A DNA stretch of 64,000 nucleotides from Escherichia coli (GCF_050320075.1 NZ_CP190018.1); one strand, 5' to 3'; positions 49,569-50,669 are shown, counted from the stretch's first letter. Numbers and translations: made by a program. The notes: generated by a model not told the origin, from the letters alone.

Positions 49569-50669
49569 ATGAAATTAAAAATAGTTGCGGTGGTTGTAAC
49601 TGGTTTGTTAGCTGCGAACGTAGCACACGCTGCCGAAGTCTATAACAAGGATGGTAATAAACTAGACCTTTATGGCAAGGTTACCGCTCTACGTTATTTT
49701 ACTGATGATAAGCGTGACGATGGTGATAAAACTTATGCCCGTCTCGGCTTTAAAGGAGAAACGCAAATCAATGATCAAATGATTGGTTTTGGTCACTGGG
49801 AATATGATTTTAAAGGCTATAACGATGAAGCCAACGGCTCGCGCGGTAACAAGACCCGTCTGGCCTATGCAGGTTTAAAAATTAGTGAATTTGGCTCTCT
49901 GGACTATGGTCGTAACTACGGTGTCGGCTATGACATTGGTTCATGGACCGATATGTTGCCAGAATTTGGTGGCGATACCTGGAGTCAGAAAGATGTCTTC
50001 ATGACATACCGTACTACCGGTGTGGCAACCTATCGCAACTACGATTTCTTCGGCTTAATTGAAGGTCTGAACTTTGCCGCGCAATATCAAGGCAAAAATG
50101 AACGCACTGACAATGGTCATCTTTATGGTGCTGACTACACGCGTGCCAATGGTGACGGTTTCGGTATCTCCTCAACTTATGTTTATGATGGCTTTGGTAT
50201 CGGTGCGGTGTATACCAAATCCGATCGGACAAATGCGCAGGAAAGAGCCGCTGCTAATCCTCTCAATGCCTCCGGTAAGAATGCAGAACTGTGGGCTACA
50301 GGTATAAAATATGATGCCAACAACATCTACTTTGCAGCTAATTACGCTGAAACATTAAACATGACCACCTATGGCGATGGTTATATCTCTAACAAAGCAC
50401 AAAGTTTTGAAGTAGTGGCACAATATCAATTCGACTTCGGCTTGCGCCCATCACTCGCTTACCTGAAATCGAAAGGCAGAGATCTGGGCCGCTACGGCGA
50501 CCAGGACATGATTGAGTATATCGACGTTGGTGCGACGTATTTCTTCAACAAAAATATGTCGACCTATGTTGATTATAAAATCAACCTGATTGATGAAAGC
50601 GACTTTACCCGTGCCGTAGATATTCGCACCGATAACATCGTCGCAACGGGAATTACCTATCAGTTCTAA
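49569..50669 (+). CDS. yddL: General porin of the OmpC/OmpF/NmpC family, full length
   Basis: 366 aa; signal peptide ending [20 protein letters not shown]-terminal ...GITYQF; K-12 carries only a fragment here, as recalled. Confidence 0.8.

Follow-up and report, generated by a model that had tools for sequence, protein, structure and literature searches.

A porin gene downstream of yddG in Escherichia coli, most probably the positional ortholog of Salmonella ompD, and its K-12 remnant yddL

The sequence analyzed here is a 64,000-nucleotide stretch of Escherichia coli DNA (GCF_050320075.1, NZ_CP190018.1), referred to below as the window. An earlier interpretation of this stretch, made from the sequence alone (the sequence-only reading), placed a complete porin gene between yddG and the LRR genes, and the positions of the ORFs bear this out: the gene order is fdnG(-), yddG(+), porin(+), LRR1, LRR2 and narU, and the porin ORF begins with ATG and contains no internal stop (Table 1). 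The two LRR genes together have a G+C content of 34%. The flanks of the porin had been described as long and AT-rich, of which only the second term holds: the upstream spacer has 27.5% G+C and the downstream spacer 37%, compared with a window average of 47.7%, but they are 255 nt and 163-169 nt in length (the latter depending on whether LRR1 starts at GTG 50833 or ATG 50839), and the upstream spacers of Salmonella and Citrobacter koseri are longer, at 524 and 568 nt, respectively. Three matters were absent from that reading, namely the orthology with ompD, the publication on O-island 62 (PMC3079680) and the IS1 element in yddG. An Rfam scan of window positions 47000-54000 at E<=1 gave no match.

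Table 1. Positions of the porin gene, its predicted signals and its neighbors in the window.
Feature	Position	Strand	Remarks
yddG (aromatic amino acid exporter)	47653..49310	+	conserved upstream neighbor; pieces 47653-48156 and 48925-49310
IS1	48157-48924		interrupts yddG of the window
CRP-like site (candidate)	49408..49423	+	TTCGA-N6-TCACA; right half GATCACA conserved in Salmonella and C. koseri
Predicted promoter	49460..49496	+	-35 TTGTTT 49460-49465, 18-nt spacer, -10 TAAAAA 49484-49489
Shine-Dalgarno sequence AAGGA	49555..49559	+	9 nt before ATG; TAAGGATT conserved in all three species
Porin CDS	49569..50669	+	366 aa plus stop; Porin_1 full length, NF007841, AlphaFold2 16 strands
Porin signal peptide	49569-49631	+	codons 1-21, read from sequence
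RybB seed match	49586..49595	+	CDS +18..+27 (UGCGGUGGUU), two G-U pairs
SdsR/MicC region	49600..49647	+	in Salmonella, SdsR about +38..+52 (PMC4911921), MicC +67..+78 (PMC3333887)
Segment missing in K-12	49847..51393		1547 bp; CGG microhomology at junction
Intrinsic terminator (predicted)	50681..50712	+	9-bp stem GACCAGCCC/GGGCTGGTT, 6 G-C pairs, 6-nt loop, T-run
LRR1 (EspR2 equivalent)	50833-52098	+	first LRR ORF downstream of the porin
LRR2 (espR1)	52161-53414	+	second LRR ORF downstream

The description of the product as a complete member of the OmpC/NmpC porin family was confirmed by profile, sequence and structure searches. Residues 27-366 cover positions 1-337 of the 337-position Pfam profile PF00267 (Porin_1) with 448.6 bits (cut-off 23.7), and the NCBIfam model NF007841 ('porin OmpC'), which is a subfamily model and not an equivalog, reaches 495 bits where 484 are required; the equivalog models for OmpF (459, cut-off 583) and PhoE (458, cut-off 599) fall short of theirs. 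A sequence search of the PDB gave matches over residues 22-366 to OmpK36, OmpC, OmpK37, OmpF and PhoE at E-values from 1e-127 to 1e-100, the solved OmpC and OmpK36 structures being 59-60% identical at an E-value of about 1e-127. The signal peptide and C-terminal aromatic residue that had been noted are both present: by eye, the N-terminus (MKLK, a hydrophobic stretch, then AHA|AEVYNKDG) is that of a typical Sec signal peptide, with the same mature start as in OmpC and OmpN, and the protein ends in TYQF, providing the aromatic residue of the beta-signal for BAM.

An AlphaFold2 model built from an alignment of 28 porins has 16 long strands and a short N-terminal strand (pLDDT 73.6, pTM 0.72); it superposes on OmpC (2j1n) with TM scores of 0.85/0.90, and Foldseek matches it to OmpC, OmpK36 and OmpF at TM 0.85-0.92. 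The eyelet residues of OmpF (K16, R42, R82, D113, E117 and R132) correspond to K37, R58, R97, D128, E132 and R148 of the window porin, and neither these six constriction residues nor the PEFGG motif of loop 3 vary across the 28-porin alignment. We consider it very probable that a functional porin for general diffusion, a member of the OmpC/OmpF/PhoE family, is encoded here, with trimer formation and pore function inferred from this likeness; the product would leave the cytoplasm through Sec and be assembled by BAM as a trimeric 16-stranded beta-barrel.

The gene also appears to be equipped as a transcription unit of its own, with a predicted promoter region, a Shine-Dalgarno sequence and a terminator, a strong hairpin followed by a T-run, that begins 12 nt past the stop codon. 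Approximately 200 nt 5' of the ATG can be aligned among E. coli, Salmonella and C. koseri, including the GATCACA motif, the -35 and -10 elements, the 5'UTR and the Shine-Dalgarno sequence, and identity to Salmonella ompD is 50/69 over the 5'UTR and 57/107 over positions -1..-110. When aligned to the Salmonella ompD leader, which has a 5'UTR of 69 nt and in which position 152 of ompD-187 is CDS position 83 (PMC4911921), transcription would begin at about 49496 and the 5'UTR would be ~73 nt long. A promoter consensus scan did not pick this homology-based promoter, because its -10 element ends in A, and offered an alternative candidate at 49494-49523 (-35 ATGTCA, -10 TAAAAT). The CRP-like site is centered ~80 nt upstream of the proposed start. 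Salmonella ompD is controlled by cAMP-CRP and, by analogy with that control and from the match to the consensus, CRP would be expected to bind this site.

In Salmonella enterica the order is maeA-adhP-fdnI-fdnH-fdnG(-), yddG(+), ompD(+), a GFA-domain gene, smvA(-), smvR, narU and narZ, so that OmpD (STM1572), a major general porin, is encoded at the same locus and in the same orientation as the window porin. C. koseri shares the Salmonella gene order, its porin and the window protein being 78% identical, and in E. albertii yddG is followed by a porin gene split by IS1 that is 91% identical over its surviving part. Salmonella ompD shares with the window gene an alignable promoter and 5'UTR and identical constriction residues, whereas its upstream spacer is longer (524 nt against 255 nt), the LRR (EspR-type) genes of the window stand in place of the GFA-smvA-smvR segment of Salmonella and C. 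koseri, and, as a further difference from ompD, the window-type porin occurs in only about 20% of E. coli strains.

The alignments with OmpN, NmpC and OmpD that the sequence-only reading had proposed give identities of 59%, 67% and 72-75%, respectively; the porin of C. koseri is 78% identical, and OmpC (60%), OmpF (57%), PhoE (56%) and YedS (56%) are more distant. The best Salmonella matches of the window porin are OmpD proteins, and its signal peptide is 71% identical to that of OmpD but only 43% identical to that of NmpC or OmpC. Identity to OmpD is 45% in the external loops and 80% in both the strands and L3, and this concentration of divergence in the external loops is typical of a functional surface protein. 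The relationship is not reciprocal: OmpD is nearer to a prophage porin of E. coli (P0063) and to NmpC (77-79%) than to the window porin (72%). In a neighbor-joining tree the window porin groups with C. koseri and Enterobacter-type porins, with bootstrap values of 0.09-0.18 in the OmpD/NmpC backbone. Because this backbone is not well supported, the argument for orthology rests on synteny and on the homology of the upstream regions. Synonymous divergence from Salmonella has reached saturation in the porin gene, as it has in yddG and narU, and dN of the porin is ~1.7 times that of its neighbors yddG and narU. Taken as a whole, this evidence makes the window porin, in all probability, the chromosomal positional ortholog of Salmonella ompD.

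It is nmpC that has been named the E. coli counterpart of ompD (PMC3333887), probably because OmpD is nearer to the prophage porins by sequence. NmpC and the Lc porins, from the lambdoid prophages DLP12 and PA-2, belong to the same OmpD/NmpC subgroup and are 67% identical to the window porin; they are nearer to OmpD in sequence but have a different signal peptide and no synteny with ompD, since NmpC and its relatives are found in prophages, flanked by the Q antiterminator and the lysis genes, and not at yddG. Several other candidates were set aside in the course of the comparison. P0063, considered as a same-locus porin, also lies in a lambdoid prophage between Q and the lysis genes, and the E. 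fergusonii candidate (P0056) is at the drpB locus; like NmpC, these other OmpD-like porins of Escherichia are thus encoded away from yddG. The closest database protein (P0001, 85%), considered as a sister ortholog, is a chimera with the 5' end of yedS and the 3' end of the window gene, and sits on a 2.1-kb metagenome contig. YedS, considered as the nearest E. coli paralog, is only 56% identical.

In Salmonella, the ompD mRNA is repressed by small RNAs that pair within the coding sequence, with MicC at codons 23-26, SdsR at codons 15-26, and RybB (PMC3333887, PMC4911921). Duplex energies were calculated with the K-12 sRNA sequences, using minimal pairing segments on the published site windows; duplexes of whole sRNAs with 250-nt targets were unrealistically long, and minimal-seed values were used instead. 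For MicC (12-nt segment) the energy is -6.0 kcal/mol in E. coli, compared with -15.5 in Salmonella and -15.4 in C. koseri; for SdsR (18 nt) the corresponding values are -9.7, -21.4 and -19.0 kcal/mol, and for RybB (16 nt) they are -13.7, -18.3 and -17.4 kcal/mol. Substitutions at +69 and +72 disrupt the 12-bp MicC duplex in the window allele, in which the MicC and SdsR sites are degraded and the RybB match is partly kept. The window allele has probably escaped control by MicC and SdsR, and it may keep control by RybB. Loss of these sites is a regulatory trait and not a criterion of descent.

According to the sequence-only reading, K-12 has only a short remnant at this position, and this proved correct. 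In MG1655, where the order is narU-yddJ-yddK-yddL-yddG-fdnG, the porin locus is occupied by yddL (b1472), of 291 nt and 96 aa, which ends at a 1547-bp deletion. K-12 can be aligned to window positions 49199-49852 at 98.3% nucleotide identity, a stretch made up of the upstream spacer and porin codons 1 to ~93, and the alignment resumes at 51385 inside LRR1. The deletion removes the porin from codon ~94 through its stop codon, along with the spacer and the initial ~187 codons of LRR1, such that K-12 yddL consists of the first ~93 porin codons fused to the interior of LRR1; its product still has the signal peptide and roughly four strands, from which no barrel is possible. A second K-12 deletion, bounded by a pair of ATTGATTTATC copies (window about 51717-52358), joined LRR1 to LRR2, and yddK is therefore an LRR1/LRR2 chimera; yddJ is a C-terminal piece of LRR2. 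From this alignment we identify yddL as the 5' stump of an ompD-type porin gene.

The distribution of the gene was surveyed in 5426 complete E. coli genomes. With presence defined by the 3' two-thirds of the porin gene at >=80% coverage, it is found in 1101 genomes (20%), among them O157:H7, O145:H28 and O169:H41, and 668 of these match at >=99% identity. At least six independent complete genomes match the 3' 770 nt with 100% identity, and because identical sequence recurs in this way a sequencing error is unlikely. The K-12 deletion junction, probed with 301 nt across yddL/yddK and scored as a contiguous match, is found in 3132 genomes (58%), which implies one inherited deletion. By subtraction, about 1190 genomes (22%) have neither the full porin nor the K-12 junction; in the one example of this third state that was read, FDAARGOS_1292, narU directly follows yddG, and most of these genomes probably lack the porin gene altogether.

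The existence of the gene and its difference from K-12 are already on record: the exact window protein occurs on at least 1000 contigs under the names 'porin OmpC' or 'outer membrane porin protein LC', RefSeq lists 'porin OmpC' in >1000 genomes, a porin gene is annotated in 29/29 of the full-length rows sampled, and the strain difference was published in 2011. In that work, O-island 62 of EDL933 was described as a 1548-bp segment with Z2239-Z2242 between yddG and narU, carried by O157, O55:H7, ECOR group D strains (042, UMN026, IAI39 and SMS-3-5) and Shigella; yddL was likened to the 5' end of Z2239 and yddJ to the 3' end of Z2242, and the island was regarded as recently acquired (Okeke 2011, PMC3079680). 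The 1547-bp segment missing from K-12 matches O-island 62, which in EDL933, like orf1599-1601 of EAEC 042, occupies the same yddG-narU locus, and Z2239 is the window porin gene. The O157 porin allele is 99.2% identical to the window porin at the protein level; LRR1 is intact in the window and in EAEC 042 but split in O157. Two points set the published account apart from ours: the word 'porin' occurs 0 times in it and Z2239 is never so named, and yddK, there interpreted as an insertion, results from two deletions in the alignment made here. A 2023 paper describes yddL as an uncharacterized 96-aa beta-barrel-like protein with a possible osmotic role and conflicting annotation, and quotes EcoGene as listing it as a pseudogene (PMC9976479). 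Among the literature searched, we found no paper that names both 'yddL' and 'ompD', and the yddG-linked porin was not identified in a proteomics paper on the porins of STEC (PMC9731836).

When the window allele is compared with that of O157:H7, 20 of the differences are synonymous and 3 are nonsynonymous (dN/dS 0.039, dS 0.089), and the values for narU in the same comparison are nearly the same (dN/dS 0.040, dS 0.118). The porin is maintained by purifying selection and is not decaying. Its codon bias is nonetheless weak compared with that of the major porins. With CAI weights following the Sharp and Li table, the window porin has a CAI of 0.376 (Nc 51.7), compared with 0.659 (35.7) for Salmonella ompD, 0.724 (33.6) for the C. 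koseri ortholog, 0.820 (29.0) for K-12 ompC, 0.661 (37.1) for ompF, 0.470 (40.4) for ompN and 0.364 (46.3) for phoE; Nc, which needs no reference set, agrees. Between Salmonella and C. koseri, dS is 0.57 for ompD and 1.2-3.4 for the flanking genes. Such a low value is expected of a codon-constrained, highly expressed gene, a signature that the E. coli ortholog has lost. Because the codon bias is weak and the MicC and SdsR sites are lost, we infer that expression of the window porin is low or conditional, and the guess in the sequence-only reading that it may be 'silenced or conditionally expressed' fits the codon data (CAI 0.38, Nc 51.7). In this respect it is like OmpN and PhoE of E. coli and OmpS1 and OmpS2 of Salmonella, which are likewise intact general porins of weak codon bias, expressed at a low level or conditionally; its CAI and Nc resemble those of phoE, although these porins lie at other loci and are 56-59% identical to it.

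Other explanations of the gene have to be weighed against these data. The RefSeq gene name 'ompC' would make it a second copy of OmpC, and it does carry the PGAP label 'ompC: porin OmpC' and pass the cut-off of NF007841; that subfamily model is passed by 11 bits only, however, K-12 OmpC is 60% identical to the window porin compared with 72-78% for the yddG-linked porins, the true ompC adjoins micF and rcsD, and in the tree OmpC joins OmpN, OmpF and PhoE, apart from the window porin. We regard this explanation as having next to no probability: the name is a generic family label, and orthology with OmpC is refuted. It is also improbable, though far less so, that the ORF is intact but dead, a silenced relic with no expression under any condition. 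A relic of this kind would be in keeping with the loss or truncation of the gene in about 80% of complete genomes, with its weak codon bias, with a promoter region of 27.5% G+C of the kind that H-NS binds, and with the outcome of our literature search, which found no functional, expression, proteomic or electrophysiological data on the yddG-linked porin. Against this, dN/dS across the 23 differing sites equals that of the housekeeping gene narU, the gene is annotated as a porin in all 29 of the full-length rows, and the pore-lining residues, signal peptide, Shine-Dalgarno sequence and terminator are all preserved.

The remaining alternative is that the porin and the LRR genes were acquired horizontally as one 'O-island', which replaced an earlier gene or filled the space between yddG and narU, the porin being a xenolog of ompD; recent acquisition of the island was proposed by Okeke et al. 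(PMC3079680). The porin has a G+C content of 44% (GC3 43%), below that of the flanks (about 50%), adjoins the 34% G+C LRR genes and has a long branch in the tree, and its distribution is patchy, with ~22% of genomes having neither porin nor junction and one example with yddG next to narU. The porin is, however, 10 points higher in G+C than the LRR genes, and because of this gap the two do not form one compositional unit. Its position and orientation are those of ompD in Salmonella and C. koseri, with an IS1-split copy in E. albertii, and its upstream regulatory region can be aligned with that of ompD. A search of 5.8 billion proteins gave, among the matches listed, none above 78% outside Escherichia; within E. 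coli, dS of the porin (0.089) tracks that of narU (0.118); and 'O-island 62' is exactly the K-12 deletion and not an insertion. We therefore think horizontal acquisition unlikely, to about the same degree as the silent relic, and favor vertical descent of the porin from an ompD-type gene.

Under vertical descent, the ancestor shared by Escherichia, Salmonella and Citrobacter would already have had an ompD-type gene between yddG and narU. Within the Escherichia lineage this gene would have lost its status as a major porin, along with its codon bias and its MicC and SdsR sites, while its surface loops diverged. The gene would later have been removed in most E. coli, with one deletion giving rise to yddL and other genomes probably without the gene; the ~20% that keep it, O157:H7, the window and the published ECOR group D strains among them, appear to do so under purifying selection, with the retained porin probably weakly or conditionally expressed. 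More tentatively, we suggest that the yddG-linked porin (whose K-12 stump is yddL), and not nmpC, is the true E. coli ortholog of OmpD, and that in the lineages that keep it (O157:H7, phylogroup D strains such as EAEC 042, and the window) it is maintained as a conditional third or fourth general porin outside MicC and SdsR control; this fuller claim we hold to be possible, if somewhat doubtful. If it is true, the gene could be relevant to antibiotic entry, to phage and colicin reception and to host interaction in these pathotypes.

As a discovery, the yddG-linked porin carries little weight, being an ordinary protein that is already on record; what is added here is the orthology with ompD, the deletion map, the distribution counts and the case for selective maintenance with reduced expression. 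The identity of yddL matters for work that still treats it as an uncharacterized 96-aa gene, the usual equation of E. coli ompD with nmpC would be corrected, and an extra general porin is flagged in O157:H7 and the published ECOR group D strains, one that K-12-based studies of porin loss in antibiotic resistance and of phage receptors would miss. The name ompD is also used in a paper on ATCC25922, for an 'outer membrane porin protein LC' that seems to be another porin, of the Lc type, rather than the window gene. The neighboring LRR genes ECs2073-2075 are named EspR1/EspR2' in a published table.

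Two leucine-rich-repeat open reading frames, LRR1 and LRR2, lie between the porin gene and narU in a segment of 34% G+C, where Salmonella and C. koseri instead carry GFA-smvA-smvR. Both belong to the EspR family and are candidate type III effectors. They are intact in the window, whereas EspR2' of Sakai is split as ECs2074/2075 and espR1 of the O157 strain F8952 is frameshifted. The PGAP annotation of an identical strain marks only a 288-nt pseudogene fragment within LRR1.

Alignment of the K-12 locus (L002 6385-8029) with this pair shows that yddK is a chimera of both LRR genes and not an inserted gene, arising from a deletion between two ATTGATTTATC repeats (window 51717-52358), and that yddJ is the C-terminal remnant of LRR2. 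Okeke et al. 2011 (PMC3079680) interpreted yddK differently, as an insertion.

Features of the porin region and the IS1 copies of the window
Feature	Position	Description
IS1, first copy	15484-16251	
IS1, second copy	37468-38235	
IS1, third copy	48157-48924	within yddG
yddG, split	47653-48156 / 48925-49310	interrupted by the third IS1
Candidate alternative sigma-70-like promoter	49494-49523	ATGTCA, 18-nt spacer, TAAAAT; consensus scan
LRR1	50833-52098	corresponds to EspR2'
LRR2	52161-53414	corresponds to espR1

Three IS1 copies are present in the window. The flanks of the third overlap by 8 bp, in what looks like a target duplication, and because this copy splits yddG, the aromatic amino acid exporter YddG is inactivated in the window strain. 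The identical insertion is found in E. coli YZLc1-3 (NZ_CP123240), the closest complete genome, relative to which the window lacks 10.5 kb at about 37464-37471, comprising the 3' part of dosC, dosP, ddpXABCDF and osmC. The boundary of this gap is exactly the left end of the second IS1, and the gap looks like an IS1-mediated adjacent deletion.

The candidate promoter falls inside the inferred 5'UTR of the porin gene. Transcripts starting from it would have a leader of ~39 nt, without part of the AU-rich stretch to which Hfq is reported to bind in Salmonella ompD (PMC4911921).

The best database match to the window porin, P0001 (85% identical), is encoded on a 2107-nt metagenome contig (L015) whose 5' end is the drpB-yedS locus and whose 3' end is a window-type porin with its LRR flank. 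This chimera was probably created by misassembly across sequence conserved among porins; less probably, it is a real recombinant. The homolog search gave no full-length 100% match because the exact porin sequence (window:49569-50666) sits in a 90%-identity cluster whose representative is LepA (elongation factor 4; 603 aa), a clustering artefact that mixes E. coli porins with Roseburia LepA proteins. In E. albertii CP034213 (L014 6137-9053), the porin at the yddG locus is split by IS1, and beyond a truncated narU-like MFS gene lie another fragment of IS1 and an Rhs/VgrG cluster; this is independent decay of the yddG-narU porin locus.
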